Source: Marsupella aquatica
Taxonomy: Eukaryota; Plantae; Marchantiophyta
Assembly: GCA_973895155.1 (NCBI GenBank)
Contig: OZ316899.1
Span: 8,435,241-8,499,240, forward strand
DNA: 64,000 nucleotides
Direction of reading: 5' to 3'
The notes under the pieces were generated by a model. It was not told the DNA's origin and made no database searches. It saw only the letters and a program-made list of their open reading frames with translations. Positions 30,016-61,937 of the stretch are shown here, one piece after another; positions within the stretch are counted from its first letter, which is position 1, and each line of letters opens with the position of its first letter. Position numbers and translations under genes: made by a program.

Positions 30016-30942
30016 CGTCGATTATATATTGGAGGCCGACTTGATGTCTTCTATAATTGTAATATTTTGCACATTGTTGGTTGCGGATCGGAATTTGATT
30101 TAATTTTGTCTCTGTCTTGTCTCAATCGTGTTTGATCTTGGCATTCACTTTGGATTTCTATTGGGTCTTTGATGTGCGAAAGAAAGGGATAAAAGAAATG
30201 GAGACTACGCATCTAAGAGATTGACTACTATGAGTAGGTAAAACAAATTCTGGAATCTGCTTGGTGGGTCAAGATTGGTAGTCTGGATCGCAATCAAGAA
30301 ACTCGACCACGCGGACTACCTCAAGGAGCATCAGTTGGAGCAGTTTTCTCACTTGCTATGGAGACCGTGCGCGGCCGGGCCCAAGGAGATTTGTGAGTTC
30401 ATCTCCAATTTTGACACTGACGCATCGACCACCAAGGTTTCAGGACAGACCTTATCACTTACAAAGCATCGGATGGCACAGATCTTCTGCCTGCCAACCG
30501 GGCCGGTGCCGGTTGAACTCCGAATTCGGGATAAGGAGTATACACCTCGGCACTTCAAACCCGAAGGTAAGACGGACAACGGATACAAGCAGGGGTCGTG
30601 CACCAACTTAATCTACATGGAGCGGCTTAACTTCATACGGACTACCCTACACATGATTGAGCCACGATCCGAGATCTCCCTCTGCATGATCGTGCAGGTG
30701 GAACAGTACAAACGGCGGAACTGGGCCCAATTCTTTTACCAAAGGTTCTCGGGGGAGCTTAAGCGGGCTCAGGGAGGTATGGCTATTGGGGGGAAGACTT
30801 ACTTGGGAAGTCATATCGCCATCATCCTTGCCTGGTACAAGGCACGGCGGGAGGCCAGAGGAAAGAATATGGCCACCTCAGCCCCGACTAATGTCACCCC
30901 CGCTCCAAGGGAGGCATCCCTGAGCGAGCGGACTATCGTGCC

Positions 30943-33900
30943 TGTGAGTAGTGGGTAATACCAAAAAACTGAAATTATTGAAAAAATTTGAACTTTTTAC
31001 GGTTTACAAACCTGCTGTTGCTATTAAAGTGCCAAGTGTAAACCTTATTCCAACTTAGTTACGAGTACTCTATTATGCGTTTATGCGTATACGAGTTACG
31101 GGTTTACGGGTTTACGGGTTACGCCAATACGGGTTACGGCCTACGCCTTACGCATTTAAGGAAAGTGTACGTTACGGCGCTACGGCTAACTTTGCAATGG
31201 GACTTAGCAACGGATCGGGGACTTCATACCTTGATAGGAATCAAGCATAGAGTTCAGGCGCTCACTCCTGTCTTTTCACCACCCCTATTCACTTGCTCTT
31301 TCCCTTTGAAAGCAACCTTTGGAGCACGCAAATCACTGTCGCAGCTATGACGAACCTGGGTGCTGAGGAACAATATCAAATTGAAGCTCTAGCAGTCTCA
31401 AAAGTAGTGGCAGCTCGTATACCATGAGCGCCTGATAGTCTTTCTAATTTACAAGACTCCTTACAGCACTTAGGATTGGAGCGCTTGCTCAAGATCCCCT
31501 GGAATGTCGAGCTCGACTCCTACTTGTAGGATTTTGTAAAGGGGACTATCATCCCGATTGAATTTAGGCGAACGATTCGAGCTCGCCCCAGCTTGTGGAC
31601 TGTTGAGCAAATTGCTTACGCCTTTGGATGCCCGTCAAAAGAAGAGGCGTTGTATTCCAAGAAACAGGACTTATCTACTCCATACTTCTCAGGAACTCGA
31701 AATTCCAAGAATGGTTGAAACTTGTCCCAGTGTACTTATCCTAAATTGAGAGTACTCATAGAATTTCTGGTACCCATTCTTCATCCGAAAAAGCCAACTC
31801 TCTATCTTGTGGCCTTGGCTAACACTATTGTAGCTGCTCACAGTGGAGCTATAAAAGTAAATTGGGCCCTACTTCTGTTTAATGTAATGAAGGATCAAGT
31901 AAGGAGCTTGGAAGCCGGGAGGACCACTTGCTTACAGAATTATCTCTCTCAGCTCTATTATGCCCATGACTGTTTACATCTTGAGGAAGAGACAGAGAGG
32001 GGGTTACTCCTGATTGACCTGGGTATTGAAGAAGAAATTCCCATGGAAGACATTGTACATGTCACCCCATTGAATTCGAATGATCAGAACGTTGAGGAGA
32101 ATGCTGATGTTCCTATGGAGGATACTTCATTAGAAGTCCCTACACATTCTCCTATGCATAGCAGGGAAGTCGATTACCATCCAATGAGTGATGAGCATTC
32201 TCCCAGTCGGACCATAAGTGCAGATCCACTAGACGACGAAGGAGTAAGGAGCATTCATCAACAAGACGATGTTGTTACACCAACTGATGCTACTCCTCAT
32301 GTGACCACCAGGTCCACTCCTTCGAAGGCAGAGTCGAATCAGCAGCTTATTGATAAGTTGACCTCTCTCCTCAGTTGCAGTGATGATGGACTATATGATG
32401 CTGTCAATAATTTGAGAATGGAGGCTGTTAGTTTGAGATCACCATTTCATGATCAGCTAAGTCCTATCAGAATGACCTCTCCCCCAAGATAACCAGCACC
32501 AATGGAGTTCGTGATCTGTACCCCTGCCCCTGTACAGCCCCCTTCCCTAGAAACAAGTGAACCTGTTCCAGTAGCAGGTAGTACCAGCTGTGTGGCCATT
32601 GTGGATGACTTGCTAGAAATACTTCAGTGTGAACCTTGACAGATAGCATCCGTGGTCAGCAACTTGATCCAACAATGTCCAACTACTAGTCCCATTCTTA
32701 GCCCAGATTCACGACGCTACAGTCTAGATTCCAACTACGAACCCACAAAAGGACCCACCTAGACTCGGTCACAGTATGAGCACCCTTACGTCAAAGAGGA
32801 TCTACCTAAAGACTCTGATCCACCCTCAGATGGTGAAACTTATAGATCTTATGATAATTCTCTTGAGTCTCCCCAAGGCAGGGATTTGAAGATGTTGATA
32901 CTGCCTTAAGATCCAATCCAAACTTAGTAGCAGTTGTCACCTCATCTACTCAAACACCCCAGAATGCCACCATCGAGAGTAGATACCCAAGACACCCAGA
33001 GTCCCAAGTGCACAGGTATGTGGAGACCTGTAAGATTATGCAGGCCAACAGACCACCGGTTGGAGAGTTCTGGAGATACTACTATCTCAAGAAGACAAAG
33101 GCAAGTTATATCTTCGACCTCGGGTGTTTTGGAACTTCCAGAGTGGAGATGGCATAATTTGATGAGTTCTGGACTGACTCTCTCTATTTCCGGCCTATTC
33201 TTGCTGTGATGCTACTTTAGGGTGATGTAGAGGTGGAGGATCCAGATTTAGTTCTGGCATATTTTGGAAATTTGGCAGCTTATGCCCTAGATTTTGTGGT
33301 TTCTTTTCTCATGCAGAGTAAGAAATCTACTTCTCCCCAGAACGCTTACCTTCCTCGAGAACCCAAGGTTACCCTTGTTTCAACCAGCTCATTTGCTGAG
33401 AAACAGAGGATCTGGAACAATGTCACCTCTCAAACTCTGGCCAACTTCAACCGATATTTCAGAGATGTCAAATGGAGGCTTCACCCTTTCTATTCCAGAT
33501 GCTGAACTCTGATGACTTCCTATACCATTATCCCCAAGTATATGCTACTACTTGTAATAACTATGATGTGATTGGGATATATAGAGAAGCTCTTCAAATA
33601 GACATATGTTATCTAAGGAAGAGAATGCCCCTGATGTATCCTGAAAGGCAACTGAGATGCCTACCCTACTCTCGAGGATCCCCACACCAGGCTGAACTAA
33701 TGGAAGTTATACAAAATCAAACTATCACAGCAGTGGAGCTACTCGAACCAGAAGACATCCGACAACAAGCTTGAGGAGTAGTCTAAGTGTTTTTAGTTAG
33801 TTTTAAGAATAGTGCATCTCTCCCTATTTTTCAAAATGTGTTCTAGAGCTTTAAAAGCTGTCATACTTCTTTAGTATATAGTCTGTACCTAGGAAAATCT

Positions 33901-34964
33901 GCTGGAAAAATCTCAGAGTTTTCTGACTTATAGTTAGGAAGTTAGAAATAGTTGAATTCGATAAGTTTTTAGTTGTACCGCAATTACGGATTACGGCTTA
34001 CGTTTTTATGCTTTTACGAGTTTACACCTTTATGCTTTTATGCTTTTACGGCTTCTTACTTAGCCATTTTCTAGCTTTCCACTTACTGAATTGCTATTTT
34101 GACTTTTTGAGGAGGATGAAGAGGCATGTCTCTTCGACCCTATGACCTCTTACTCTGTAGATTTTTACTATAAGACCCCTCCACCACTAGTGTAGTTTAT
34201 GGTTAAGTTATGCATTTTTGCCTCTTCTTTGTGTTAAACTAGTTGATCATGAATCTATGAGTTCGAGATCAGGTTTAACATTTGGAGAGACTTGCCTCCT
34301 TCTTGTGTTTCTATCTCTGATTAATAACACAGGAAGTAAAATTCCTTTTGTGCAAATCTTTGGAGTTGTGATGATAGATTCCTTTTGGTGACTCATTGTA
34401 ATCTCCTGAGTTCTTAGAGTTAACTCATTGAGTTTAAGCCTTATTGAAATTGATGGATTTTCTTTCGTGTTGCTTAGTACCATCTAAATGTTGAAGTAGT
34501 CGCTCTTTTAGATCTTGTCTGAGTACCACTTAGAAAGAAAGGATAAGACGTGTTGACGGCACTATAAAAGAGTATCTAGTAAGCATTTTAGATCTGAAAA
34601 GCAATATGGATTTGAATCCTTAAGTCTTTTCATTTTGACTTATATCTAAGGAGCAACCTTGGTCTATTCCAGACTCCCTTAGCATACTTTAAGATATTTT
34701 CCCTTGTGTTTGGTTAATCATTCCCTTTTCATTAATTTATGGTTATCCAATGTTGAGTTATCATTGAAAACTACTCACCGCTGTGGAGCGATCCTCAAAA
34801 TACCTTAGTAAAGTAATCAAACTTGATTACTATACGTGGAAAACATTTTAAGTCTATTATTGTTATTTAAATCTATCAAACCAACCCCATCTTGTTCTTT
34901 ACGGGAACGAATACCGAGTTTGAAGACCATTAAGTGTGTTTTTGGTTCTTCATAGCAAACTACA
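30943..34964 (+). mobile_element. 4022-bp TG..CA unit (giant solo LTR) with a perfect 5-bp TSD GTGCC and an internal degenerate ORF
   Basis: gtgcc|TGTGAGTAG...GCAAACTACA|gtgcc. I see no internal direct repeat pair. Its ends are homologous to the unit at 55783-57540. Confidence 0.9.
31347..33774 (+). pseudogene. LTR-internal ORF homologous to the N-domains at 30275 and 53050
   Basis: LGLERLLKIPW...IAYAFGCP...SKNG*NLSQCTYPKLRVLIEFL...VNWA; multiple stops and frameshifts. Confidence 0.7.
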
Positions 34965-36909
34965 GTGCCTCAGCCAAACCCCGAGCCGGAGGCCCCGACT
35001 AGTACTCCGTCACCACCTCTTGCTGAAATTCCATCGCCCCCTTTCGTCGAGCCTCCGCTACCCGTAGTACAGCCACCCCCAATCCCTCCACCACCTGAAG
35101 AAACCTTTCCTCCCCAGTGCAGACTACAGAGGAGCTCACCACCTCGCCCGAGGAACCACTGGTACCCGAGAGGATGGAGGACTACCAAGTAGCCCCGGGG
35201 ACCATGGCCTACGACCTGGTCCAGAAGTTTAGTCAAACTCTGTCAGGGGAGCTGGCGACGTACATCGGACAACAAGTCTCGGCATACTTTCAACCAGCCT
35301 TCTTCATGTTAGAGCACCAACCACGGATTGTAAGCCGCTTGGAAGAAGAACTCATGACGAAGGGGAATGAGATCGGGGGCCTCCAAATGCTGGTAGAACA
35401 CCTTGAGGAGGAGGCCACTACCCGCTGTGAGGAGTTAGTCCGCACCGTCAAACAGCGGGACGGACTAACCTAGGAGTTGAGCAGGGTGCAAGCGGATCTC
35501 AAGAAGCTGGACGACACCGTGCTTCAGTTGCGCTCGGAATCCTCGGCTCGGGTTACCAGCCTGACCGACCTCAACAACCAATTCCTACAAGCAGCTCAGC
35601 AGGTGGCTAGTCTCTCCGCCGAACGGGATAAATTGTTGGCGCAAGACCAGACCCATTGTGACTCCATCGACCAGCTCAACCTGGAGGTAGCACGGCTCCA
35701 GACAGAGGTCGATGAAGCTGCAAACGAGGCGGAGGAGGCTATGCGGGACAACAAGGCCTTGCAGGACCGCATTACCCTGCTCGTCCTCCAGCGGGGAAGA
35801 CCTGGGCCCACCTCTGATCAAGGCGGCTCGAGGTCTCGCCCCGACAGGGGGACAAACCCTGGTCCGACCATGGCTTGCACGTAAGAGGTGGTTAGCGAAG
35901 GGTGGAAGCAGGCGCCGCGCAAGGCGGTTCAGTCAGCGACATCTTTTGGTTAGGCGTTATGACAGAATAGCTATCATTAGGCGCTGATTAGCGGCACAGT
36001 AGGAAGAATTAGGACCGGATCAGTTAGGATCAGCCAACGTAGGATAGAGTCCATCAACGGACTAGATTTTGGTCAGTAGACTTAGCTGCTGCCATTCCGG
36101 TCAGCGCCCTTGTCGTCGATGGTCAACCGGTCAGAGGAGTGCGGCCGGCTAGTCAGAGGGTAGTTAGTCAGTAGGCATTACCCCGGAAGGTAGTATCTTC
36201 CGGTTCCTTTTTGCAACCGTAGTATTTAGGCTTCCCTTTCCGTTGTGGGAGGGGGAGAAGGCTTAGTTATCTCAGCATAAGAAAAGGCGAGGCACGGGGA
36301 GTCCCGGCCTGAGCAGGGTCAGAGCGCACCAAGGAGTGAGAGTCAAAGTCGAGCTTGCTGGGCAAGTGCGAGGCGGGGCCTCATAGAGACTGGGCATCGA
36401 CTGCCGTTGGGCCTGCTGACCCCCTTAGAAGTCGAGTCAACTATGTAAACTGATTCTTTGCTAAGTAAATGTAGTCTTTTCCCTCTAATGTTTCCGCGAG
36501 TAACTGGTGTTGTGTGTATGCTTTGTCTGGGCAAAGGCGCCATTTCAAGGGACGTACCGGGTGCAGACTAATGGTAGGGATTTCCACCCATTGCATGTCA
36601 CAAGGTTCTGTCACGCCGATGGCTTGAAAGCCCCAAGCTGGGAGTTAGTCCGAGTCACTAACTATGGGAATATTCCAGCGGTGGAAAACAAATATACCTA
36701 TGACTAGTACGAGTTGCGTGAGTGTTATACCAGTAAGTATATTGCCTTAGCCCGACTTAGGGCCAATCGAGGCCACTACACACCTCCTTGCCCAAACCCT
36801 CACCCCTACTGGTGGTCAAGGTTGCCCCATGGAGCTAAACTGGATTTAAGGCCTGGGTTAGGGGCGCGACAAAATGCTTAGCCTGTGTGACCCTAGAAAG
36901 CTTATTTTT

Positions 36910-39900
36910 TTAACCAGTAGCAGCCACCACTACAGTAAGGTGATCCAATGTTTCAGAAATGATCAGTATCTGATCAAAAACTCTTTTTTTGGACAAATCA
37001 AACGTCTGATCATTACATGCATTCCAGATAGCCCACAGAATCTGATATATCAAAAAGAGACAAAGTGTGCTCCAAAGGCTCTTCTCAAGCGATAAGAAGA
37101 TTAACTCTACCAGATTCCGATGTGGTTGTATGATAGTACCATTCAGCCAGGTCTGAGCTTCCAACCAACATCTCTGTGCATGTCTGCAGTTAGTGAATAG
37201 GTGGGGGATAGTCTCAATTCTCCCACGACGTAAAATGCAAATTCCATCCAACTTGGCAATTCTCACTGCTCTTGATCCAGAGAACAATCCCTGTGCCAGA
37301 ACCCGCCATAAAAAAGTTTTTGCTCTGGTGGACAGATCTGACGTCCAGACTGTCAACCAAATTTTGCTCCATTCTTCATCAGTATGGCTTACTTCCCATA
37401 TTTTGTTCAGCCTGAGGTGATTTGTTCCTTTAGGTCAAAGCATTTCGTAAACCCGCCAGTTCGGTAGGCCAAACTGTCTCATCCGTGTGTCCTTGTCAAG
37501 CCACTGCCATTGACAAGCGGGGGTATGAAATCCACTTCCATGGAAAGCAGTACCATGGACCATCCTGATCAGTGAAAGACATAAGATTTGATCTCCATCG
37601 GTAATGCCTCTCAAGCGGTTCAACCTGGTATCCAAGTGTCTCCAATCATCCACAGCAAGGGACCAAAAGTCCCCCACCCTCCTGATTCCTAAGCTGCCAC
37701 AAAGCCGGGTCAATGTCACAATGGATGCTTCAGGCAGATCATAAAAATCCTTAGAGCACCGACTCAGATCCTCCAAAATCCAGTGTCCAAGGATCGCCTC
37801 AGCACCGGGATGGAAGATCAAGTTTTCCCTAGCCAGTGCCCAAGCACCCCATAGTTGCCCTGTATAAGACAATTTCCCAAAAGATCATGGTGAACCTAGC
37901 AGCATTAGATCTGTCATAGAATAGTGGTTCCTGCGCACAAATCTGTAGTTTCTCCATTTTGTCAGTCGCAAGTTAACCGCAAAGAGTTTAGCCCACTCAG
38001 TCTCCGAATTATCCAAAGCCCCGGTGAACCACTTACAGAGGAGTGCATCTGAATGACTCCTAAAGTCCTTTAGGCCAAGTCCGCCATCTTGCACAGTTTA
38101 TCCCACGCCACCAGGGGTATCCTCTTACCCCTTGTCTTGTTAGTACCCCAAAGAAAATTCCTGCTTAATGCGATTAATTTTCTAGCCAATGCAGTCGGGG
38201 AGCGCAAAAACATCATGTGATAAATGGGTATAGCCTGCAAGACATGTTTAACAAGCAAGAGGCGACCAGTAAAAGAAAGAAATCGTGAGGATCATGTAGA
38301 CAGGCATGCGCTAATCCTGTCCAAGCAGAAGCCATGTAACTGTGCTTCTGACAGTCCAATGGGGCTCCCAAGTATTTTTGCACTATCCCTACTCACTGAT
38401 AACACACCCAGTCTCTCTAAGCCATCTAGGAATGTCATCCAATCCCAAAGGGATGACAATGGATTTTTTAAGATTGAGTTTTGCTCCAGTAGCACATTCA
38501 TAAGTGTTCAATGTGCTTTTAGCCTGTTCGAATGCTAGCTCAGTTATCGGGATGAACAGACCCATATCATCCGCAAAGAGTCGAAAAGAAATATTCAGAT
38601 CCTGAGTAATCTGAAAGCCTTGTAATCTGCCTGCCTTGATTTCCGCATTACAAAAATCCATTAGCGGTTGAGTCAAAATTGCAAAAAGTAACGGAGAGAG
38701 AGGGCATCCCTATCTCACCCCCCGGCTCAACTAAATATCTTCAGTCCAGATCCCATTTACTAAAGCCTTAGAGTACGCATTGCTTAGTAAAGACTTGACC
38801 AAAAAGATGAAATGAGATCCAATGCCCAGTAAGTGCATTGTTTCCCAGATGTAGGTATGGTCTACCTTATCAAAAGCTTTCTCAAAATCTAACTTCAGGA
38901 ATAGATCCGGTGTATTTGTAACGTTAATCCAATCATTCATCAGCCAAGTAAGGGAGATGTTCTCTAGAATGTGTCTGCCTGGAATGAATCCTGTTTGTTG
39001 TGGGCAGATCAGTTTAGAGAGCGACAATTTTAATCGCTGAGCCAAGAGCTTGGCAATGATCTTGTAAATGATTGTCAACATCGTGAGAGGTCGCCAGTCC
39101 CCCAGCCTTCGTTTATCAGTCTTTTTAGGGATGAAACGGATGACTCCCTCCTTTATCTTGAATGCCAGATGTCCCGTACGCCAAAAGTCCGATACCATGG
39201 CATGCAAGTCATCCTTCAGAAATTCCCAACATGCATGAATACCCTCCGCGATCATCCCATCAATCCCCGGAGCCTTGTCACAAGGTAAAAGTAGCAAGGT
39301 ACCGTGCAGCTCTTGTATCGAGGGAAGAGCCTCTAGTCTTCTGATTTCACTAGCCGTCAGTGCAAACCGAGTATGTTCACACAGTATACGTTGGGCAGTC
39401 AGCATGGCCGATACCTCCTCCGTAGAGAGCATCGGTGGTGCATATAACTCCTCGCAGTGTCTCTACACCTCCTGAATTACTGCCTGTTCTTCCCGGATTT
39501 CTCTTCCTCCTTCCACCACTAGGTAAGCCATGTTTTCTCTCTGCCGCTTTGCCTTGACGGTAGAAAAGAAAAACTTTGAAGTTTCTTCACCTTGGCCAAG
39601 CCATCTGATCCGAGATAGACGTCGACTATGATGTGCCTCCTGATCTCCATTTCACGTACGTTATCTTCCGTGTCCATGAAATTCACAGTGCAGGAGGATG
39701 AGTGATCCTCAACAATAGCTAATTTCAGCATGCATAGCCTATCCTTGATTAGCCGCATCTCTTCCTCCCGAGGTAGGGGTGCAGCTTGTAAATCCATATA
39801 ATATTTCCTTAGCCTTTGAAATGCCAGTGCGAATCTCAGGTGTGGATTGCTGGGGGGATTGTCTTCCAACCAAGCCCCAACAAGAAGTTCTACATTTCCT

Positions 39901-40709
39901 TGTTTCTGTAGGACCGCAGGATTGGCCTTAAAATATGTAGCCCGCCTTTGGTTAGCTCCATCCAGAATTGGTAAGGTAAATCTAAGGGTAAGGATCACTA
40001 GATCGTGATCAGAGAGAGCTGATGTCCCATTGTGTATAAGTGCCAAAACTTCCCCAGTCCAGCTCCCCTTCTCGCTAATGTAAAATCGGTCTAGTCGTGA
40101 CTGTATTAGTCTGCCATGTCTCACCCTTCTCCAAGTGAATTTGGATCCCGTAACTTGGCCCAAAATGCCCAACGCATCTTGTAAATCTAATCTGGTTGTG
40201 AGGAATTGCCAGAATTCTTTCTCACGTCCACAGATCAAGGGAGACGGACCAGTTGAGTCGCCCCGTATTTCTGTCATATTAAAATTGCCTCCCATGATCC
40301 ATCGATCCTGAGGAAGAGCATTCCAAAGATCATCCCATAGTAGCATCCTTTCACTAGTAGAGGAACGAGCATATACACAAATTAATCCAAAATTACCTTC
40401 AGTATGTTCCACTTGGATCCAGACCGCTTGGCCTTTATCCAGCGTGCCTGAAGTTAGCACCTTGAACATGGAATGCAGTAGAATGGCTGTGCCACCTCTG
40501 CCCTCATCCGGGAGAGAGTAAAAATGCTGATATGTAGGTAAAATAATCCTGAGAGCAATGTCCAATCTGAAGCTGTCAGCCTTAACTTCTTGGAGCATCA
40601 AAGCATCGAGAGGAGGTCGGATAGATGAAACCCATTTGGATACCACAATTTTTTGATTTGGGTCGCACAGGCCACAAATGTTCCAAGTGGCCACCTTGAA
40701 TGTTGTCAT
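36910..40709 (-). pseudogene. L1 ORF2 (endonuclease, RT, C-terminal zinc-binding region)
   Basis: ATWNICGL, SRLDRFY, LSDHD, KAPGIDG, WRPLTML, KLDFEKAFD, LFADD, GGLGL and ETIPHLFTNC. Confidence 0.95.
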
Positions 40710-40774
40710 GTAGATTCAAGTCGTGCAAACCACCTCCATGCTCCACCCAGAGGCTAAGCGCCACCACTCACAAG

Positions 40775-43500: not shown

Positions 43501-43775
43501 GGCCACGGGCCAAGCACAGTGCCCTATTCCTGCGGAAAAGTCCTCCGGATACCAAAAACTCACAAAAAAGCCCGGTTGATAGTAGAAACACCTCCGTCTA
43601 GGAGATAAGCAAGATTAGTACCTTTAAATCATCCAGTCCTTCAGAAAACCCCGACAAAGATCCACACCCTAGTGCTCGTCAGCTCCATTAGTACTCCGCT
43701 TCAGCTCCAATTAAGTCCAACCCAGGATAAACCTTAGTTAAGTCTACCTCAGGTTCAGTATCAACACACCTACCA

Positions 43776-45190: not shown

Positions 45191-48100
45191 TGTTTTAGGG
45201 TTAGTGTATGTTTGTGAGGGATAGTCATATCTCTTTGTGTTGGCTCAAAGGTCTCATCTTTTGATGTGGAGCCTTTCAAGCACAAGCTCTAGCGGCTATG
45301 GTGTGGTTGTCTAGGTTGTGTGTACATAACATGGATTCCTTGAGGCTTAAGGTGTGTTTGGCTTGACATAAGTGTGTGATTGCATTGGGCAAGATTGTGT
45401 GTTTGATTGGCATCAATCGTTGTTTGATTGCTCTTGAAGATTACATCAAAAGGTTGGCTTCAAACTTTGTTGTGCGGACTGTGCAGACAAAAGTTTGATT
45501 TCATTTTGGTTTTGTTGTGGACAATTTGTGGTAGTTCGGATCGGGTGTTGTTCTTGAACGGATTGCTTGTATCTCAATCTGTTGCAAGTTGATGCGGCGC
45601 TTGCATGGAAGTGAAGCTTCAAGTTGTTGTTGCTAAGTTGTAGTTTTGGAGTTGTTGTCTTCGCTGATATGCATTGTTGCATCGTGGAGGACTGATTGTG
45701 TGATCGACAAGTGGATGTTGCTGTCAACAGTTGTCTACAAGATAGATGATGTCGTTTGATCCTATTTTGTGAAGGGAAAGTAGTCGGATGTGTGACTCTT
45801 TGTGGTTTTGATTGAGGCAGTTCAATTGGGAGTCCGACAGTTGATTATGTTTACAATTTTTGTAGGATGCAGTTCTGATTTGCATCAAGTTCCTTGTTGA
45901 TGGATAATACGTTTCTATGAAGGAAATGACATTGAATGTTGGTGAATTGTGTTGGCGGCGCGCGACGAGATAAGGCACCGCGGAGAGGCGAGGCGGCTAT
46001 GACTTAGAGCATAGAGGAAACGACAAATTGTGAATAGTGATTTGCCCGTCAATTGCGCCGTGTTTAGCGCATGACTTGAGCAAAGAGAGTCTTGGTGGGG
46101 AGGCACTCACAGCCCGTGACCTGTGGCCTCTTGCAGCTTGGCTAGCACCCACAGCCCACGGCCTGTGGCCTCTCATAGTTTGGTTTGTGTGGGTAGACAT
46201 CCACAGCCCGCGGTTTGTGGCCAATTCACCTTGGTTGTGTGGGTTGGCACCCACAGCCCACGACCTGTGGCCTCTCGCTGTTTGGTTTGCGTGGGTAGAC
46301 ACCCACAGCCCACGGCTTGTGGCCAATTCATCTTGGTTGTGTGGGTTGGCACCCACAACCCACGGCGTGTGGCCTCTTGCAGTTTGGGTTGCGTGGGTAG
46401 ACACCCACAGCCCACGGCCTATGGCCTTTCACGGTTTGGTTGCGTGGGTAGTCACCCATAGCCCATGGCCTGTGACCAATTCATCTTGTTTGTGTGGGTA
46501 CTGGAAATGGTTGTTTCAACATTTGGATGGTCCACCCATGGATGATTATCATGAGTTTTGGAAGATCCATTTGGCTAATATTGAGATATTGGTCACCCAA
46601 CTATGTGTCCATCACTTACGGCACAAGTGCAATTTCTCAACATGTTGCTCCAAGTGTTGCTTCTTCTAGTAGCACTAGCCAGAGTGACACTCCACCAACA
46701 TCCACCATTACTCCTACCAGTGCAATTGTGGGTGGGAGTGGAGTTGTGCCAATATTTAACCCTGTGGCAAAGTTCTTTGATGTGTTGAAGCATAACTACC
46801 AAGGTGTGAGAACTGATAAGTTGAAGTGTCTTCAAGATTTTTAGCGCAAGACTGGAGAGAGTCTACGCAAAGCATACACTCATATGTGAAGATTAATTAC
46901 AATCACCAAGGGAGTGATAGACGCCCAAGCAGTTTAATTTTGGATAGAGAGTTGTGGCGTAGAGTTAGAGACGCCATTCTATTGAGAGATTCAGATCCCA
47001 CATTGGTTGTTGTTTTTGCACTTGTTGAGAGCATTGAGAAGGTGAATGAGAAGGTGGTGACTTCCGGATTTGTCAAGGAAGGCCCACCAAAGGTTTCATC
47101 TACACCCACATTGCAACCTACTGCAAGGAAGAGCCAGAGGGAGAAGCTTACAACATGGGAATCTACTAGTCAGAGACTTGTGCCCTCCTATGCCGGACAG
47201 TAGTCAGGATGTTGGACTTGTGGTGGGGATCATGCACAAAGATATTTCCCGAATAATAGAGGGTCCAAGGGGCATCTATGCCTGATCAACGATTGCGTGA
47301 TCATTGTGGAGTTTCTGGTCACACCAAGGATAGGTGTTTTATACTCCATCCTGAACTACGACGGGGAGGATTGCGTACGTATGATTAGGGAAGAGGAGAT
47401 AGAGGTGGTTGCGGCCGAGGTATGCCACATGCAGGGAGACAAGGAGGTGATGCTCCTGCCACTACCATTAGATCCAAAGGATGCAAAAATTGCTCAATTG
47501 GAGCAACAACTAGCTGCCATGGCCAGTTATCAGGTTAGACCTACTTTTTGTGATGGAGCTTCTAATGGAGCTGTTGGAGACTTGGCTGCCATGGGATTCA
47601 TGTGTGGCACTGCCCATGTTGATGCATTGGCAGCTTTGACTCGAGGAGCAACAAAAGCCCTTGAGCCCCAAGGAGCAATGGTAGAGTTGGATCCTCAAAG
47701 GGGGAGGCTTGTTGTTAAACGAAGCTTCCCCAACCGTTTACATTGTTAGAGGCAGTTCACACTACCTCTATGAATCCGATTAAGACAAATCCAAGTGTTG
47801 ATAAGTTGGTAGAATCGGATGACGTTGCAACAGGGCTAGCAAATACCTTGCTAGGGGTGGCCACTAACATTGTGCGCACCCCATTATTTTTAGCAACGGA
47901 TATATTGGCATTGGGAGTTAGTTCAACTGAAGTGTTCAAATTGGCGGACACATTATGTGAAGACACTCCAGTTGTTGCTTCTCGTGTAGAGACAATGCAT
48001 AATTCTGAAGTTGTGGAATTGATTCCACCTATTGCTAGTGGTGAAACATGGCAAGCAATAGCGGCAAGGTTGATGGAGTTACCAGCACGCCCTGCATTTG

Positions 48101-49277: not shown

Positions 49278-49506
49278 CCGGTTTGGACAGTCTACAATAC
49301 AGGGGAAAATAGCCTCTTGTTGTCACTATTGTTAGTATCCAAACCTTACTTCCTCAACAACAATCTCCACTGGGAATTCAACAAGGACTGACTTATCAAA
49401 ACCTAGCTTCTGCAATTTTGCTTGCAAGAATGCATGCCATGTAACTGAATAATGTTCTCCCCCCTTTCCACTTCAGTCCAGGGGTTTACATACTTTACAA
49501 TCTGTT

Positions 49507-50350: not shown

Positions 50351-53049
50351 GTCGCAGATCCAAAGTAATTTCTTAATCTATAATTATGTACACTTGCTTC
50401 TAACCATCTAATTAACCCTAAATCTCCGTAGGGGTTACCCTTTCCCAAAATGATGTCTTCTCCCAAATACCCACACGTAAATCAGCCGAATCAAAGGGAA
50501 ACTCGTTAGTTTGGATGGTATCCCCCACACAGGCCACTGCGACCGGATCCCTACCCACACTACAACACTACCTACACCTTTTGCAAACTTGAAAGCATTG
50601 CAAACAACAAAGGAAATCAAAGAAAAAAAACTCGCCTTTGCGAAGTATCGCGCATCGCAATAGAATCGCAAACTGTGAAGCCCAAAGGTTCACATCCGGT
50701 CTTTTGCAAGACCTTCGCAATGCCTTCGCAACTTGCAACACGAATAGAATCGGAAAGGACTCACATTTAAGCGACTCAGTGGGCGTCGCGATAGGCTTGC
50801 AATAATAATTGAGCAGTTCCATATTTGGGATTCCAGGAGTTTGGTAATATGTTTGCAATATTAAACAAATGGTAGTTATGCCATGAAGATCGCTTTGCAT
50901 TTGTGTGAAATTATGTGGTTCGCATAATGTTTGCGATACCTTCAGTATGGTAAATATGCGATTTGGGTTGTTCGCATAGGTTTTGCAAGCTGTCTTGAGG
51001 CTAGGGTTTAGATTTAGAGTTTTGAATTATGGTTGGGGTCTTGTTGTCCAACACGGAGAATGAGGTCTGAATCAAAATTGCTTTATAGAAAATTGATAGG
51101 TACACAAAAATTTCCTAAACCCTAAACCCTAGATGGGTGTCATATGACAAGCTAGGTCCCTATAAGACTACCCATATCAAAACTATATACTACACTAAGT
51201 AAATGGGCATCCCATGGGCACTACACCACCAAGCTCTAGAATGGGGTCCTCCTACTCCTTGTCGCCGGCCTCTTCCCCTTGTCCCTCTTGCGACGATCCG
51301 GACGTGGCACAGGAGGTGGTGCTGGCTGCTCCTCCACATCTGGTTCCTCCTCGTCCTCTTCCTCATCCTCTTCCTCCCCCTCCTGCTGGGAAACTCCTCC
51401 TACTGGTCCAGATCCACTAACTACCTCCTACCTTGGGCCCCTTTGTCGTGGTCCCCTCATTGTTCTCATCGGTGCTGCTGGTATCACTGGCATCCTCATC
51501 ATCCTGTTTGCACAGCACAACGCCAAATTGGTTTAGGTTTACGAAATGAAAAGATAAGTGGATTGGGTGGGAAAAATTGAAGGGGATACATGCACTTACA
51601 GTCGTCAACCCTGCGTCAACCAAGTCAAAGAGATGTTTGGCTCCATGCGCAGCTCCTATCTCCATCTCTTTTGTTGTTATCTTCCTGCGGTACCTCTTAT
51701 ACTACCACAACCAAACATTCCAAAACCAAAATCGATTGGGGTTAATATGCCATAAACCCAAGAAAAATGCATGGAGGTGCTAATAGGGTGCTCCCTAACA
51801 CAAAATTGGGCTCAATAACCCTTAGAGGAATTTTTAAACATAATACACACTTGCAAAACTCCCCGCTTCGCAAATTCAAATAAATTGGTTGTTTGCAAAG
51901 TAGTTTGCAAAGTGGGTTAGTTCGCAATAGCTTCGCATCTACAACTTTAAAAAATGCCATGATAGACTTTGCGAAACATTTGCGAAGCAACCCGCATCGC
52001 AAAAGCTTCGCAAACTTTGTTTTTAAAAAATTCCGAGAAATCTCTAAGGCACGCAATGTGTCAGGGTGACCTAAAGTACAAGGGAGGCCATAAGAAAGAA
52101 AGAAGAGGTATGCAGGGGGGCATTGCAGGTTTGGATAGCAATTGAAAGCAAGGAAACAGGAGCAGGGGAGGAGAGGGCCCACTCACAAAGTGTGCTTTGA
52201 GGCCGGGAAGTCCACCTTGGCCCATCTTGTGCGTGGTCTTGGGCCGTTTCCTGACTCGTTCAGCTGCAAGGATGAATTTTTGGGGTGGTGCCCCCACTTC
52301 ATCCACAATGTGCTGCATGTGAGACACCTTCTCAGCCATTGCCTTGAGGTCTCGGTCGGACTTCCCGGCCTTCTGTGCCTTGGCTTCCATCTCCTTCCAG
52401 AAGAGAAGGTTCTTGGCAGCTCTCATCTGCACCTCCACTTTGTAAAAGGCATTCCACATGTCCTCAGTGAATTGCAGTGGCCTCCTAGCTCACGTTTCTG
52501 TACTCCTCCAAGTTTGCCAGGTAGGCCCTTACCTTCTTCCTATCATGGTACCGTGCTTGAGACATTGAATTGGAAATTCTATCTGCAAGCCACTGTTCAT
52601 CAATCTCTGCTCCATTTCAAAATGAATCTTTGATTTGACTCATTACTTTCCTCTGGTCTGCCTTGCTGAGTTTCCCCCACTCAACTCCTCGTGCAAAATT
52701 GGAGCGCACCATAAGCCTGATAGTGCTCTTTGCCCCGGTGTAGGCCAGTTCAGTAGGAATTGTGATGCCTTGCCAAGATCATGAAGTAATAACTAAGCCT
52801 AAAAAATGGCTAAATAAGGATAGATAGAGAGTATAAGGTAACAATAAAGACCGATACCGATTTCTATGTGTAGATGATAAAGGAAAGGATCCAACGGTTG
52901 AGATCTAGTGGATTGGAGTTATGACCTAATCCATGCTTGATCACAAGGACCCCTAAGTGGCGGCTTCGGAGTAAGGTGACCAATACTCTGCCATTTCGCA
53001 TTCTCGTGCACACGGTTTTGGCATTGAGGAGCGACTATTAGTCGAGTGC

Positions 53050-56000
53050 ATGTGGTGGATTGGGAGATTGCGCAAGTTCTTGGCATTCGGTGGAATGAAC
53101 ACGGTGAATCAGGCAGGGAAGTTTTGGGGCTGTTTGCTTGAAGAAGCAAGGCAGATGATACCTACGTATGAAGACGTTGAGCCAGAGCGCGTAGCCAGAG
53201 AACGAGCGGAGCTTGTACAATTGTGGGGAATTCACAAAATGGCATTCGTAGATACGGAGGAGGTGTTGGAAAAGTTCTCGTGGACACCCACAAGTGCGAA
53301 GCTTGACGAATTGCTGATTCGGGAGAATAAGGTCGTGGGGATTAGAGAGGCAATCAAGAATGCAGGGCGGCCACTTTGGGAATTGAAGAGTCACACTGCG
53401 AAGTGGACGAAGGAAGCTATTCTTGGGGAGTATTCAGGCGCTGAAGAGATGAAGCGCAAGGGAAGTTCGGCATCCGCAACTCCAGCAAAGCAAACTAGGT
53501 CAGAGAGACCAATCAAGATGGAATCTGGGCCAGTTAGAGATCGGGCCGTAGAGGATAAAACCATGACAGTGTGGGCGGACAGGTTACTTGCCGATTTACA
53601 ATTACAGTTTGCAAGAGATGAGGATGAGGTCGTCAGTGCCGTCCAGGATAATAAATATGCAGGATATATTAATGACACTGGGTTGGAGGGCTTTGTCAGG
53701 TTGTCCTGGAGGATGGTAGACATACCGGATGAGGATCCGTTGGACTTTGTGGGATGCTGGGAGGCTTCTTCCAACACGACGCTGTTGTATGGAAAGGTGT
53801 TCAAACTAACACCTGCGCTTATCGAAGCCGTCTTTGCTTTACCAACAGGAAAGAAGACTAAGGTGGATCAGAGGAAGATGTTGTCGGATGACCAGTTCAG
53901 GTCATTTCTAGGGCCGTCCACTAAGAATGGGTTTTTTAGGAATCAATGTACCAACCCGCATATAGGGCAGCTGATTGATTTCCTGAGAGTCACGTTGCAT
54001 TGTACCTTGCCGAGAGCAGAAATCGGCAAAGCCCAGGTATTTTTGGTGGAGAATATTGATGCAAGCCGAGACTACAACGGCTATCTCTTAATGCGGTTGA
54101 AGAAGGCATTAAATGAAGAGAAGCAGAGTATTGGGGAGGGAGCAGTATCCAAACTACGGTACCATCTGCAATTACTTTGCCGATATGCAAGAAGCCAGTC
54201 TTTTGCACCGGTGTTGCCTATACAGGAGCGGATGCCGATCACTGCACCACTTGAGGAGGTGGAGGAGGGAGGAGGACAAGGAGCCTCTAAGCAAACAACG
54301 CCACGGGAGGAGGTCGGCAACACCGGCAACACGAGAACAGGAGCATTCCCCGATCAAGGAGCCAGAGGTAGTAACATATGATGTAGTGAGAAATCCGTTG
54401 CATCGGCCTACTCGTAATAATCCATATGCAGGCATCCAATTGGTCAAGAGGAAGATGACTACCAAAGAGAGAAAGAAATATGACGAGCAAATGGATTCAG
54501 AAACAGATGAGGAGGTAAGCCGAAGCCAGGAGAGGCCGGTATTAAGAGCTTCTAACAGAGCCCAAGTGGAGGGACCTGTGGAGGAAGGTCAACCAGCAGC
54601 AGCCCAACAATATTCGGAGGAAGAGATCGGGGGCTTTGGAGGAGAGGCCGGCATGCTAGGTAGTCAGGTTAATGTGGATGATTACGACGATGACTATGTC
54701 GATCACAGGGAGAGGCCGGTACCAGGAGTTAGAAAGATGGAAAGGTTTTGTAGAAGACTTCCCGTAGTCTTCTATGGCAAGCCGGAGGACCAGAAAACCC
54801 TAGAGTCTCCTCCACCGGACGTGACACCATTGGAATTTGACCAAATGAAGGAAGCCGAGGCAGGTCTGAAGGAGAAACTCGACGAGTGGAGGGCCCGAAA
54901 TGACATGCAGGAACGGCAGCTACCAAGCGGTGATTGACCGGAGGAAATAAGACGGCTTAGTGAGAAGCAGGCCGAACCTCTCACTGACTTTGATCAATTA
55001 CGGGCAGAAGCCTGGGAGAAACGGCCTCATTGGCAGATGCCAGTATCACATGGCAGGTCAAAATATGCCAGGGATCGGGCTAGGGAGTATGGAGACATGT
55101 GTGGACTGCTCGCCTTAGAAATCTTCGGCAATGAGTTAGAATCCGGACCATTTCTTAGAAAGGAAATGGTTGACCAAACAAGATTAGAGGAGGCAATGAC
55201 GTTGGAGCGATTAAAGAAAGAGGAGGTAATCGCTCGGCTTTGCTCCATGGAAGCCGAAGTTGCTAAGACAAAGTCTGGTCAACCAAATCAGCAGGATCTC
55301 TTGGCTAAGCAGCATGAATTGGAAGTGGCGAACAACCAATTGGAAAACTACCAATTGGATAACCAGCAGATCAAGGAAAAATTGACGAAGGTAGAGCTGG
55401 AGTTAGCCAATTCAAAAGTAGAAGTACAGGGTCTAAATCGCCAAGTCAAGAGGCTCAGAAAGACGGCTAAGGATCAGGCCACCCAGAGCAAGAAGGCCTT
55501 GGCAGAAGCCCAAAGGAAGTATGACAAGTTACTCGACCGGTTGGAGGCCATGCGTGAGAAGCATGATGACGCCATTTGCACAGCCGCCAATGATCACCTA
55601 AGCCGAGTCCAACAGATACGCAAAGAGCTTTAGGAGGAGCTAACCAGAACAAAGCAGGCATGGACGGACAAGGTCACAAAATTGGAAGGCATCAACGATT
55701 CCCAGAGAGCCGCTTTGGATAAGCAGGAGTTTGAGATTGTGCAGATCTTAAACGAGGAGCTCAAGACGGCCAAAGAGGAGGCTGTAGTATTGTATTAAGG
55801 ACATAAATCAGCATTTAATGCCTAAAACTCGGTATTCGTTCCCATGGAAGAACATGTTGGGAATGGTTTTCTATCAATTAACACTTATGAATGACTAAGG
55901 TGTCGAAAACACAAAGGTGAGCCTTTTACTATGGATGCTCAGCAAGGCATAGATTTAAATGTTTGCTTAACATTATAAATACGATTAACAAAATGGAATA

Positions 56001-58224
56001 AATTAACAAAACACAAGAAAATCTTGAGGTATGATGAGGGAGTCTGGAATAGACCAAGGTAACTCCTCAACAACACTTAATTTGTGATGATTTAAGGTGA
56101 AAAATCCGCAAGAACATTTCTGGAATGAAATACTTTACTAGGATGATTATTTAAATGCCATCAACATATCTTAACCTTTCCTTCCAAGGTACTCAGTTAG
56201 GATTAATAACCAATCACTTCAGCATCCAGTCGGTACTCCGAGTCACGAATAATGAACACCATCATCGTCAAACTAAAGTCATAGGTAATTGGTCAATAAC
56301 ATTCTTTGCATCCCGTGCAAAAGCAATGTCATGCCAAAAACTTATGCATCAAGAACTTAGAAATGTATAGCCTTCACCAATTAAGGAATCTATCTCCATA
56401 CATTCAAAAGATTTCATCATTTCACAAGGTTTCACTTCTCTGGTTTGATCTCCAACATTCAAACACAAGGAAGGGGGAAGAATTTCTTTGTATTAATCAC
56501 TCATGCAAATACAGAGTTTCTCTCTACAAAGTGAAGCCTTGTCATGCTGCAAATTTGCAACATAGTGCTTACATAATTCTTTCACACTTCAAATGACATA
56601 AATTCTACTTTATATAGGCTGGTAGAAACCCAAGGAGAGAGAAAATGAAAGGACATGCCCTTTCATGCCTCAAGGGTTCTTGAACTAAAGTAAAAATAAC
56701 AAAGGTGTGCTACAGTAGTACCTAAGGGTCACATGAGGGTTCCTGGTATATAAAACTAACCAAAAGGTATTGCAAATGTGAACTAATGTAAAAGTGACAT
56801 TAGGGTAAAACTAATGAATAGTGGCTTTGTCCTAATTTTAGTTTCTAAACCAAATATCAGTTTGAGATGAAACGTTCCCAGAGTATTCTCTTAGGTATAG
56901 TCTTCATGCTGGTAAAATCTCAGACTTTTCTGAGGTGCTTAGGTACTTCAATAAAATACCAAAAAGTACCGGAAATAAAGAACTACAGAAAATCGGAAAA
57001 AATTCTAAGTGTTGAAGGCATAAACGCGTATACACGTAAAAGCGTAAACTCGTAAAGACGTAATCGCAGTGCAACAAAAACTTAGCAGATTCAAACATTT
57101 TTAACTTCCTAGCTATAAGTCGGCTTGAGCTGAAACTTTCAGGGATGATTCTACTGCGTAATGACTACCTCCTGAAAAAGTATGAAACTTTTCTGACCAT
57201 GTGAACTATTTAACTAAAATATCAGAGATCGGCTGATCGTGGTAATTGCACACAGAGCTCATTTTTGATGAAGTGCTTTGGAGTCCGGTTCTTGAATCTT
57301 CTAGTCTGCATTGCTTCTCCAATGATGTCCAGTCTTCTTTCTTGGTAGCATGCAAAGAGCAAGGATTTATATGGCGATCCTTGTCCAATAGAGGCAATAG
57401 CCTCCGATGAAGCATAACATCAGGTAAAGTGTTCAGTTGATCTAAATTGCTACAAAAGGTAGCTATATTACACCTTTGAGTTAGAAAAAGTTCAAAATTT
57501 ATAAATTTTCCATCATTTCCAACTAATCTACTGCATTACAGAGGCGCTCCGGCTTAATGAGGAGGTTGAGGATTTATCCCAAGAGCTGGAGGAGGCCAAA
57601 GACAAGATGATTGGCTTGCAGAGGCGTGTAGATAACCAAACAGAAAAGTTGCGAAAGTATGTCAAAGCCGGGCACGGATCACCAACTGGACGGTCTCCCG
57701 CTAGTGGCATGGTCGTCGGGAATACGGAGATGTCGAAGCCAACATCTATTTTGTCAAGAGTAACTGGGGGTAAGGCAATGCAGTTGGTTGCGGATCTGGC
57801 CAAAACATTCATGGGGCCAACACGTACTTCTGGGGTACCCCATAAAGCCACGCCAGAAGAGGTCGAGAGTATGGCCGCCCACATTTGTGGGACTGTTGCT
57901 ACAAAGGCAGTTGTGGTAGAGATAAGTAATGTCGATGAACTTGGAGCTGCGGTAATAGGTTTAGACACCGGAACAGCCACCATGGACTACCAGAATGTGA
58001 AGCCGTGGAAGATCGATACAAAACATATTGGAGAGCGGGCTTGGATTGAGGAAATAAAGGCCATTGCTATCCAAGCCGTTTCCCAGGAGGATGCCGATGC
58101 AACAGCCGATGCCGGGGCCGACAAACCAGAACTCAAAGTCGAGGAAGCCGAAGGGGTCAAGCTAGAGCCGATGGCAGGAGAAGGTGCAGAGTCAGAAGAT
58201 TCGGACTTACCCCTTGTCACCTGA
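53050..58224 (+). pseudogene. ~1100-aa accessory protein (Transposase_32-like domain plus long coiled coil); frameshift, stops and a nested solo LTR
   Basis: GLEGFVRLSW...IEAVFALPTG...TKNGFFRNQCTNP; coiled coil at 55200-55780. The frame resumes AKEEA|LRLNEEV after the TSD. Confidence 0.8.
55783..57540 (-). mobile_element. 1758-bp solo LTR with perfect TSD GAGGC, related to 30943-34964
   Basis: gaggc|TGTAGTATTG...CTGCATTACA|gaggc. It shares aaactcggtattcgttccc, atttgaacttttt and gacttatag(c/t)taggaagtt with the 4-kb unit in reverse orientation. Confidence 0.93.
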
Positions 58225-61050
58225 CAATTAAGGAGGGCCAGTCATCGGTTGGAAGGAGGACGTGGCGGCAGGAGAAGGGCTTGGGCCAGAAGGGTGCGGC
58301 CGTTGTAGGATGGGACAGGGCAAGTAGCGCCCTGTCGGCTTAGGTAGTATTAGATGCTCGGTTCACACAGGGTTTCGGGCTAGTCAAGTTTTTTAGGTGA
58401 TAGTTTTTTAGTTGGATTATCGCGGTGGAAGGCCGTGAGTTGTGGTTAGGATTTCCGCCTTTTCCCCTGAATGCGCTGCAAGGATAAAAACCTGGGCAGC
58501 GTGGCTCGAGGGATTTTTCTTAGTCAAGACTCTAGTGTAAGTCAGTATTGCTAGCATACAGCTCTCGGCTAAATCTAGACCGCGGATTATCAGTAAACCA
58601 CAAATTTCCATGTCTGTGCAATTGTTTGAATTGAGTTGGTCTTGTTGCCTAGTTCGCAGATTCTTGCAATCATGGCGTTGTGTGTTGGGATACTTGTCGC
58701 TTGATCGATTTGAGTCAGTTAGAGCGATATTGTGAAGGTATACGATCGCATTGTCTTGATTAGAGACTGCCAAACCAAACTCTGAGAGAAAAGTGAGGAT
58801 TGAGAGTGTTTAGTCGGTGAAGTGTGGGTTGAGTCAGTCTGAAAAAGACCTTCAGCCGGCTTAAGAAATTAAGCCGTAGAGGTACATTCCGGGGGCGGAA
58901 TACAAATATACCTGTAGAAGTTAAAGAGGAATTAGGTGTCTCAGTTGTGCACAATTCACAAGCCCAGTGAAAGAATCGGTCCGGTAAGTGTGGATCGAAG
59001 GAGAGGATCGCATTTCCAAACCGAATAGCTGCCATACGGCAAGAGGACGGACATAAACGAGTGGTTTATGATCGACTGAGGGTAGTTCTTGGGGTTAGAG
59101 GTCTTGGAAAACGCGCCACAAGAATGCCTTCAATCAAGGCAATCATAGGCAACTTCTTCCTCTCTTCCTCCTTCTTTCGTTGCTCCTCCCGATGTGGTCT
59201 TATCTCATCTCATTCCTCTCTCCTCCTCTTCTTTTCTAGGGCAGCAGGTGAGACTACTCATGCCTTGGCCCTCTCCTCCTTCTTACGCTTCTTCTCTCTT
59301 GCCTTCTGTGAGCTGCACTCCTTTGCTCCTCCTCCCTTGCAATGTTCCCTGCAGCTACTCCCGTTTGCAAGGCTTGCCCTAGGATTGCACTCAAAGAAGC
59401 AATCCCTACTGGTGTAGTCAAATCTAAGCGGCTCAACTGTGCTACATTGAGGTGCTCAGCCATCAAATCGGTCCATCGATTCCTCTCCTGCTCCCCATTG
59501 CCTTCATTCCCATTGCCACTGTCACTCACCCCTGCCCCATCACCTCCATTTGCTCCACTGGAATCCATAGCTAAGCCACCCCCGAGCGCGCGTGAGCTCC
59601 CTTCTCCCTCCCTACGCTTGAAATTTGTCAAATGCCGCTGAGTATGCCGCGGCCGAGTGCTAAAGTACAAGCGGGAAAGACTTGCGAAGCAACCCATTTT
59701 GCAATTTGCGATTCTTCTCATTTCGCATGTAGTTTCTCAATTTTGCGAAACCATTGTGACGTGAAAGGCTTTGCAACACCTTTGCTCTCTCGCAGAAATG
59801 CTCTCGGGCTCTGTTTTTCTGAAGGTCGTGCGAAAGCAGATGCTTTGCAAAACTCAATTCTAATTTGTGATGGTATTTGCAAAGGAAGTGGCTTCGCAAG
59901 ACATTGGCAACTCGTCCTGGGGGGAATGTTGGTTTCATTTGAAAGGGTTTTTTTCAAAGGTAAGTGGACCCCTCTATACTCATATTTGGAATTCTTTTTG
60001 GCCATGTTTTGGGTGTTAGATAATACTTGAAGGCGGGTTTGAAGGGTTAGGCAGGTTAATGGGTTATGTATGGTGTTGGTTTAGGCTAAGGTTTGGGTTT
60101 ACATTAGTTTAGAAGAAATAATAAAGGTGTGGGATTTGGTTTACAAGAAATAAGTAAGGTTTGGGTTTAGGGTTTTAGGGTTTGGGGTTTTTAAATAGAA
60201 AGGTCTCTAGGGTTGAAGAAAGGTTTGGGTTTGTGTGTAAGTCAGATTTAGGTTTAATAGGTAGGATGCGGTTTGGGGTTGGAGGTTTGGATAAGACAAA
60301 GCAAGGTTTCATGAGATTTATATTGCAGCCTTTTGGGTTTAAGAGAGGTTCATTGGGTTTATGAATCAAAAAGGGATTGGCAAGGGTTTTGCTAACAAAG
60401 GAGGGGAATATATGATAGCTTGCAGGGTGCGGCACTTTTTGATGATTTGATACTAATGCATATGCATTGTGAGAGCCCGGGCATTTGAAAGGTAAACATT
60501 GCATGATCGGCTCAAGTGTTCATTTCATGTACTTAACACTTTTGGTTGCCACTATGTATAAAGGGGACATGTATATAGGGATGTTTGTTCTTGTCTGGTC
60601 CAGATTATTGTGCTTACATATACATGGAATGCTTGCAGCTTTTCCCTCATACTTTCAGATTGGGTTCATTCATTATCTTAGAGCCACAAGACCTATTGGC
60701 ACTGCTGAGCCCGGGTCTCATAAAGGTACCTTTTTTATTGCTATGGTCATTTTGGTTTGGGTTTCTTGTCATCATTATTTGGGAACTTTGATTTATATCA
60801 TTTTGTGGTATGTTTTGGTCATAACATGCCCATTTTAATTATATTTTGTTACAGGGGATATGTCTTCATCTTCTGAAATCTCCATCACAGACTCGTTCTC
60901 CTCTGATGAAGATACACCTCCTCCACCTCAACATCACACGACCAGTTCAGTCAAGGTGGAATCAAGTCAAATATACTCTGTCTACAATGACATCATCACT
61001 CATTTCAGACCTGTGACTTGGTACCCTCAAGTCCCAAGGTAGGACTTGTG

Positions 61051-61797: not shown

Positions 61798-61937
61798 CTT
61801 GTGGTCCACCCCGTCAACTTTGTGAATGTTCCAGATGTATGGGTCAGGTTTCCCAAAAATCTTACATATGTGCCCAACATATTGAGAGATATGGGCGTTG
61901 TGGAAGTCATACGGCAAGGGCTTCTTCATCTCATATG
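61798..61937 (+). CDS. Probable N-terminal Zn-motif exon of the CACTA #2 transposase
   Basis: LCECSRC...CAQHIERYG resembles YCPCVNC...LHVIKHG of TnpD #1. It ends at a phase-0 donor ATG|GTAAGT. Confidence 0.65.

Follow-up and report, generated by a model that had tools for sequence, protein, structure and literature searches.

Gene-bearing units in a nest of liverwort transposons are probably solo giant long terminal repeats of Ty3/gypsy elements

The window analyzed here, a stretch of 64,000 nucleotides from contig OZ316899.1 of the liverwort Marsupella aquatica (assembly GCA_973895155.1, positions 8,435,241 to 8,499,240), is a nest of plant transposons in which a Pfam scan identified open reading frames (ORFs) of gypsy, copia, long interspersed nuclear element (LINE), CACTA and Harbinger type. 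Embedded in this nest are three units, denoted A, B and C, each with a copy of the same protein domain, and a smaller element, D, that lacks the shared ORF. The original prediction, made from the sequence alone, had described three units resembling solo long terminal repeats (LTRs), each enclosing a homologous ORF unrelated to gag or pol, and had offered two explanations: giant LTRs that leave the gene behind after solo-LTR formation, or an integrase-mobilized single-ORF element. This observation is confirmed, with the corrections that A is nested in the ORF of C, that D is nested in B and that the ORFs are decayed. We conclude that A, B and the truncated C are probably solo giant LTRs of Ty3/gypsy elements in which the LTR starts upstream of a 3' accessory gene. 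The features on which the argument is built are the following (positions in the window; TSD, target site duplication):

30242..30942, + strand: left part of unit C, a 5'-truncated ORF with the shared domain at 30284-30847
30938..30942, + strand: left TSD of unit A, GTGCC; the right copy at 34965-34969 is a perfect 5-bp match
30943..34964, + strand: unit A, 4,022 bp, TG..CA ends, inserted in the ORF of unit C; likely a solo giant LTR
31059..31176, + strand: array of the word TTACG(G) in the leader of A, 8 copies within 150 bp; a second array lies at 33984-34050
31347..33774, + strand: decayed ORF of A, about 809 codons, delimited by alignment to the intact relative P0004
31407..31991, + strand: shared domain in A, located by profile; VANC21-like predicted fold, modeled on P0004
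33775..34964, + strand: tail of A, 1,190 bp, with a core like that of an ordinary LTR; its last 520 bp are 66% identical to D and it weakly resembles the LTR of the relative L001
34965..36871, + strand: right part of unit C, comprising a proline-rich linker, the final, coiled-coil-like part of the ORF (ending at 35884) and a tail of about 0.99 kb ending in CA
52761..59120, + strand: unit B, TG..CA ends, TSD GGAAT/AGAAT (4 of 5 positions match), 4,597 bp without D; likely a solo giant LTR
53050..58224, + strand: decayed ORF of B, about 1,120-1,140 codons without D, with the domain at 53623-54195 and a coiled-coil-like part behind it
55783..57540, - strand: element D, 1,758 bp, TG..CA ends, TSD GAGGC, which is a sister of A but lacks the shared ORF; likely a solo LTR of ordinary type

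The boundaries of A are as originally predicted, with TG..CA ends and the perfect TSD, whereas for B the TG..CA ends hold and the 5-bp duplication matches at four of its five positions. Empty sites, that is, contigs joining the two flanks of a unit without the unit itself, were found for A (30937>34965 in contig run X1 and 30931>34959 in run X3), and, in 3 of 4 runs each, for B (52756>59122) and D (55777>57541). These contigs establish each of A, B and D as a discrete insertion; A and B are multi-copy. A sits within the reading frame of C, which continues across the insertion site, and the frame of B continues across D in the same manner. The sequence hosting B (50500-52760 and 59121-60100) is itself a multi-copy repeat, by eye rich in TTCGCA/TTTGCG words, and is perhaps another element with a word array of its own.

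The right end of C, ..GCGCGACA, lies at 36871; AAATG|TG, the word expected at the matching left end, occurs upstream solely at 977, 4833 and 28229, none of which is plausible as a left end, so that the left end of C is lost, as predicted. About 540 codons of its ORF remain. C abuts, at about 30240, the leader of a minus-strand copia element (24960-30240), which has no recognizable LTRs, is fused through this leader to the truncated unit and has integrase motifs that we take to be Bianca-like. The possibility that C is an LTR of this copia element was rejected, the junction being devoid of a PBS-like (primer binding site) motif.

In A, the ORF of about 809 codons is preceded by a 404-bp leader and followed by the 1,190-bp tail; in B, a 289-bp leader, about 1,120-1,140 codons and an 896-bp tail follow one another in the same order. 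All ORF copies are broken, by three stops in the domain and frameshifts in A, by a frameshift, two stops and the insertion of D in B, and by truncation and interruption in C, and the copies in the window are dead. The intact 808-aa relative P0004 aligns with the ORF of A from end to end (60-76% identity); at the three domain stops of A and at one stop of B the contigs listed have another letter, and P0004 has a residue at those of A.

As had been proposed, the units contain neither an LTR pair nor gag or pol. Local scores between the first and last 400 bp were 23-30 in all four units, under shuffle maxima of 33-39, so that short LTR pairs, the arrangement that the original prediction had set against its own proposal, were sought and rejected, and none of the nine ORF pieces scanned had a gag or pol match in Pfam. 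In large retrotransposon derivatives (LARDs) and terminal-repeat retrotransposons in miniature (TRIMs), a pair of LTRs encloses an interior that is non-coding or short, and the units do not belong to these classes, the terminal direct repeats not having been found. Traits of a solo LTR were found: TG..CA ends with a TSD (perfect in A and D, four of five positions in B), an empty site in the case of A, B and D, no LTR pair and no gag or pol. A and D have their ends in common: the last 520 bp are 66% identical (E=3e-46), and approximately the first 100 bp are shared as well (score 42 against a shuffle maximum of 30). A plain deletion of A was ruled out as the origin of D because the two are just 66-70% alike. 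D also has an internal duplication of 126 bp (63%) and, near its start, a stop-free frame of 109 codons. The tails of B and C have a 33-nt motif in common and nothing else (42 against a shuffle maximum of 36); their derivation from the gypsy LTR present in the window at about 22770-23436 was rejected, with scores within those of shuffles.

The domain shared by the three units spans about 190 aa and occurs in the window in exactly three copies, according to a profile search. Its homology, already proposed in the original prediction, is supported by pairwise E values of 6e-20 (B/C), 6e-7 (A/B) and 0.007 (A/C) and by hhalign, which returned 98.1% for the A-type against the B/C-type alignment (172 columns); A and B are 26% identical at the amino acid level. 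A hidden Markov model (HMM) search of 1.84 billion representatives yielded 97 profile matches, where a word-based protein search with the C domain had given none. No gag or pol domain was detected in any of the 97 relatives. The HMM comparison with Transposase_32 and the plant mobile domain (PMD) that the original prediction had proposed gave little: up to an E value of 10, none of the three window domains matches a Pfam family, and none reaches the gathering cut-off of Transposase_32, ATHILA or PMD, but 4 of the 97 relatives match Transposase_32 (PF20167) weakly (E 3.5e-8 to 0.006, under the 45-bit cut-off). PMD itself is matched neither by the three domains nor by the 97 relatives; neighbors in the ESM Atlas carry PMD or DUF1985. 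Of 20 clusters looked up, four name a species, in each case the leafy liverwort Calypogeia fissa. Intact relatives are located on Logan contigs of 3.4-4.4 kb. In place of dN/dS, identity was compared by codon position; it falls from position 2 through position 1 to position 3 in all three pairs, which points to long purifying selection on these families.

As proposed in the original prediction, the domain was also compared with known structures. The model of the C domain (predicted local distance difference test score, pLDDT, 92) has as its best match among 48,161 chains VANC21, a protein of the DNA transposon VANDAL21, with Z 7.6, root-mean-square deviation (rmsd) 4.1 and 185 of 194 residues aligned, the next match being at Z 2.8. 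The A-type model has the same best match among the 48,161 chains (Z 7.3, rmsd 5.2, 204 residues aligned; next 4.9). Foldseek likewise placed VANC21 first (TM score 0.51, E 0.64; next at most 0.20), and a sequence search of the PDB gave nothing below E 0.27. A DNA-binding fold of VANC21/PMD type is thus predicted for the domain; a shared fold by itself shows no function.

The genomic context of the relatives was sought in viral contigs (three scans) and prokaryote genomes, where none was found, and in metagenomes, where 158 pattern matches led to a single locus, L001; for the B/C-type gene, none of these scans gave a context. L001 (1-10852), a metagenome contig whose ends overlap by 123 nt, is a collapsed circle and encompasses a complete gypsy element. 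Pfam identifies gag, reverse transcriptase (RT), RNase H (RH) as well as integrase (INT), in the order RT-RH-INT, with neither a chromodomain nor an extra RNase H; a stop is present at about 814-816, between a protease-like region and RT. The liverwort Tat Z2 likewise lacks the extra RNase H (PMC13468544), and Diaspora and Calypso have a tRNA-Asp PBS at 5 bp (PMC1142308). The components of L001 follow one another as pol, polypurine tract 1, the extra ORF, polypurine tract 2, LTR, PBS-like site and gag. The pol stop is at 3717, tract 1 ends at 3770 and is followed by GG, the gene occupies 4222-6450, tract 2 ends at 6573, and the LTR extends over 6574-7564 (991 bp) and starts with TGTGATGAGC. 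The two tracts that flank the extra ORF are near-identical. Behind the LTR, at a distance of 11 nt, lies the PBS-like TGGCGCCGCTGCCGGGGA (at 7576), which may be the tRNA-Asp site of Athila elements. L001 is labeled Athila-like for the order of its domains, for its 3' extra ORF and for this presumed PBS motif.

A tree was built from 80 domains with a length of 120 aa or more, P0044, an unrelated repeat protein among the 97 profile matches, having been dropped; in it the L001 gene groups with that of A in a clade of 15 domains with support 1.0. Because the L001 gene lies upstream of an LTR of about 1 kb, it is a 3' extra ORF by origin and not a new type of gene. In L001, the part bounded by tract 1 and the end of the LTR measures 3,794 bp (451 + gene + 1,114), compared with 4,022 bp (404 + gene + 1,190) in A, and the tail of A aligns weakly to the L001 LTR (56 against a shuffle maximum of 46). 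Given that the ends, leader, gene and tail of A are collinear with this part of L001, A favors the giant LTR, the first of the two explanations originally offered. The parent elements were likely Athila-like; for B and C, the placement comes from protein homology and layout alone.

Each subfamily also has its own CpG-containing word. TTACGG occurs 10 times in A (0.4 expected, z 9.8), on one strand and in arrays on either side of the gene, and TTACG is clustered in D. AAGCCG occurs 12 times in B (1.3 expected, z 7.8), or 18 times on both strands compared with 13 in the remaining 57.6 kb. GCGCTA occurs 12 times in L001 (0.3 expected, z 14.1), where the CGCTA core is clustered at four places over the full length of the element, including places distant from the LTR, as 8-bp-periodic AGCGCTAC. 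In four control regions the top z values were 4.3-6.0. VANC21 binds dense motifs of the same orientation that are specific to its own family (PMC5735166). Because of the VANC21-like predicted fold, the presence of a word of the own family and the precedents of VANC and PMD proteins, we propose, as the likeliest role, that the domain would bind the CpG word of its family and so oppose host silencing, to which we give slightly less than an even chance.

The polypurine tract (PPT) sets the 5' edge of an LTR, and the following sequence of events can be envisaged. The ends, the 5-bp TSDs, the empty sites and the lack of gag and pol indicate that the units entered by integrase-type insertion. As in L001, the gene would have belonged to an Athila-like element as its extra ORF, flanked by two near-identical polypurine tracts. 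If the downstream tract decayed and the upstream tract gained a following TG, plus-strand priming would shift upstream; such a shift is suggested for A because the tract-like word behind its stop, AAGCTTGAGGAG, is degenerate and the next bases are not TG. The leader, the gene and the old LTR would then become a single LTR of 4-4.6 kb that is copied to both ends, recombination between the two LTRs would leave a gene-bearing solo LTR, and the encoded domain, with its predicted VANC21/PMD-type fold, may counter silencing via the CpG word. Such a course would account for A with no further assumption, and the layout of B is alike.

Several observations count against this interpretation. An element with two ORF-bearing LTRs was not seen, and neither was a gag-pol partner of B or C. 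The internal position of the ORF in a full-length copy, which the original prediction had named as contrary evidence, was found in the relative L001 and not in the families of the window: the L001 gene is most likely internal because tract 1 is followed by GG and not TG, and as a collapsed circle L001 cannot reveal where the LTR starts. The leader of A does not align to the L001 spacer (22 against a shuffle maximum of 32), nor does D to the L001 LTR (36 against 55), and the tails of B and C have no link to L001 or to the other gypsy LTR of the window. PBS motifs at the unit ends were looked for and rejected, and among the loose ends of contigs listed (the best 24 of 1,987 rows for the B/D region and the best 12 of 549 for the A region) no PPT or PBS was seen adjoining A, B or C; the row at 59120 (13 contigs, agreement 0.43) has no recognizable PBS. 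Lacking its left end, C is indistinguishable from a truncated ordinary element. With respect to function, both VANC21 Z values are below 8, with 10% identity and the Foldseek E of 0.64, and the full-length A-type model (808 aa) gave no Foldseek match at E up to 0.001, with VANC absent among the matches listed. The C word, GGACTA, has z 5.0 and so does not exceed the values of the control regions, and most of the B words are inside the ORF, some being explicable by Glu-Ala codons, whereas VANC21 motifs are mainly non-coding.

Three other explanations have to be considered. The L001 layout with its short LTR would be compatible with an ordinary internal 3' extra ORF, A and B being one-off aberrant products (of tract-1-primed integration or of deletions) and C a truncated normal element, as its missing left end would allow; furthermore, the first ~500 bp of A are far lower in summed contig depth than the remainder. 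Depth in A, averaged by hand over 8 and 15 bins, has a tail-to-ORF ratio of ~1.1 (X1) and ~1.4 (X3), and since summed contig depth is not copy number it was not used as support. However, a second LTR start, such as a deletion between the 5' LTR and the internal region would leave, is absent behind the gene of A; A and B, which represent two independent subfamilies, lie within 30 kb and agree in their TSD-bounded layout; and D has the first ~100 bp of A, so that the start of A is a reused terminus. This explanation appears unlikely. Still less probable, and less favored than in the original prediction, which had left it level with giant LTRs, is a class of non-autonomous single-ORF retroelements without LTR pairs, derived from the tract-1-to-LTR-end part of an Athila element and mobilized in trans. 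It would account for the exclusive observation of stand-alone copies, for unit ends at which no PPT or PBS is displayed and for the many diverged copies (2,698-7,917 contigs matched 51500-60000, which comprises B, D and their host, in all four runs); yet reverse transcription depends on a terminal repeat in addition to a PBS and a PPT (PMC7264820), and the units lack such a repeat; moreover, D, the size of an ordinary solo LTR, has the ends of A.

It is also conceivable, although we lean against it, that the units are giant LTRs and that the protein is a nuclear accessory factor with a different role, such as an LTR activator or a helper of integration or import, the words being U3 enhancer repeats. 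The fold is more widely shared, in that VANC is reported to resemble MAIN/PMD (PMC13547354), PMD proteins bind motifs and oppose Polycomb at genes (bioRxiv 2024.09.27.615353), and the function of extra ORFs is described as unknown (PMC7264820). Against such a role, every protein subfamily has a CpG word of its own, and the clusters of the L001 word far from the LTR are distributed as VANC targets are. Solo giant LTRs thus remain the preferred origin of A, B and C. As a tentative extension, toward which we are more doubtful than convinced, several liverwort gypsy lineages might have moved the LTR start upstream of a VANC-like gene, and the resulting solo LTRs might each act as a self-contained cassette of promoter, gene and binding sites that continues to de-silence the family in trans once gag-pol has been deleted by the host, with each subfamily co-evolving its protein and its CpG word.

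Elsewhere in the window, an ORF with a PHD finger (NSD-like PHD matches; 13572-14243, - strand) lies directly upstream of the CACTA transposase at 9005-12998 and is likely cargo of that element. A SET-domain ORF (62118-62846, + strand; E 3e-6) adjoins the Harbinger-type Plant_tran nuclease at 61141-61925 and precedes a CACTA-like ORF at 63021; it is possibly a transposon-borne histone methyltransferase domain. Tandem arrays occupy 17830-21310 and 46095-46500, with periods of ~580, 83 and 50-100 bp.

A gene inside an LTR would outlast solo-LTR formation. Were the proposed role correct, this process, by which the host normally disarms an element, would seed the genome with anti-silencing genes. 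Three states can be compared, namely ORF-bearing units of deeply split subfamilies, the ORF-less D and an outside relative with a short LTR and two tracts, and taken together they suggest a shift of the priming site as a simple route to giant LTRs. Retroviral genes in U3, such as sag of mouse mammary tumor virus (MMTV) and nef of human immunodeficiency virus (HIV), overlap the LTR and are thereby duplicated at both ends. These genes are short, whereas here the gene makes up 60-75% of a plant unit of 4-4.6 kb.

Published extra ORFs of plant elements occupy the internal region and for the most part follow pol and precede the 3' LTR (PMC7264820), LTRs of non-chromoviruses reach ~5 kb (PMC6317226), and what these ORFs do has long been an open question (PMC7264820, PMC6317226). 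A literature search in which subscription papers were thinly covered and Repbase was outside the scope revealed no account of plant LTRs containing such a gene. The closest counterpart in layout is the 3' sense extra ORF of Athila (ATHILA PF03078, Transposase_32 PF20167; PMC6317226, PMC11728184, PMC7264820), which matches Transposase_32 in sunflower (PMC11728184) and, like the L001 gene, is a stand-alone ORF 3' of pol. As in the units described here, it combines an N-terminal globular domain with a coiled-coil-like region, and the TSD is 5 bp; in the cited accounts it lies in the internal region, whereas here it is inside a TG..CA/TSD unit without gag-pol and likely inside the LTR. Plant mobile domain proteins (PF10536; MAIN/MAIL; extra ORFs of Ogre) are approached through the ESM Atlas neighbors, without a PMD match here, and VANC and MAIN are reported to be structural homologs (PMC13547354). 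VANC21 (VANDAL21, a MuDR DNA transposon; PDB 9LNK/9LNJ; PMC5735166) serves its own host DNA transposon, as opposed to a gypsy retrotransposon here, with ~10% identity and no match at the sequence level, and its motif is YAGTATTAY, compared with CpG words of 5-6 nt. Sequence-specific anti-silencing has been shown for VANDAL DNA transposons (PMC5735166). The predicted fold is alike across the whole domain, A and L001 have dense same-strand family words as VANC21 targets do, and the combination of a VANC21-like fold with family words offers a direct test of anti-silencing in LTR retrotransposons.
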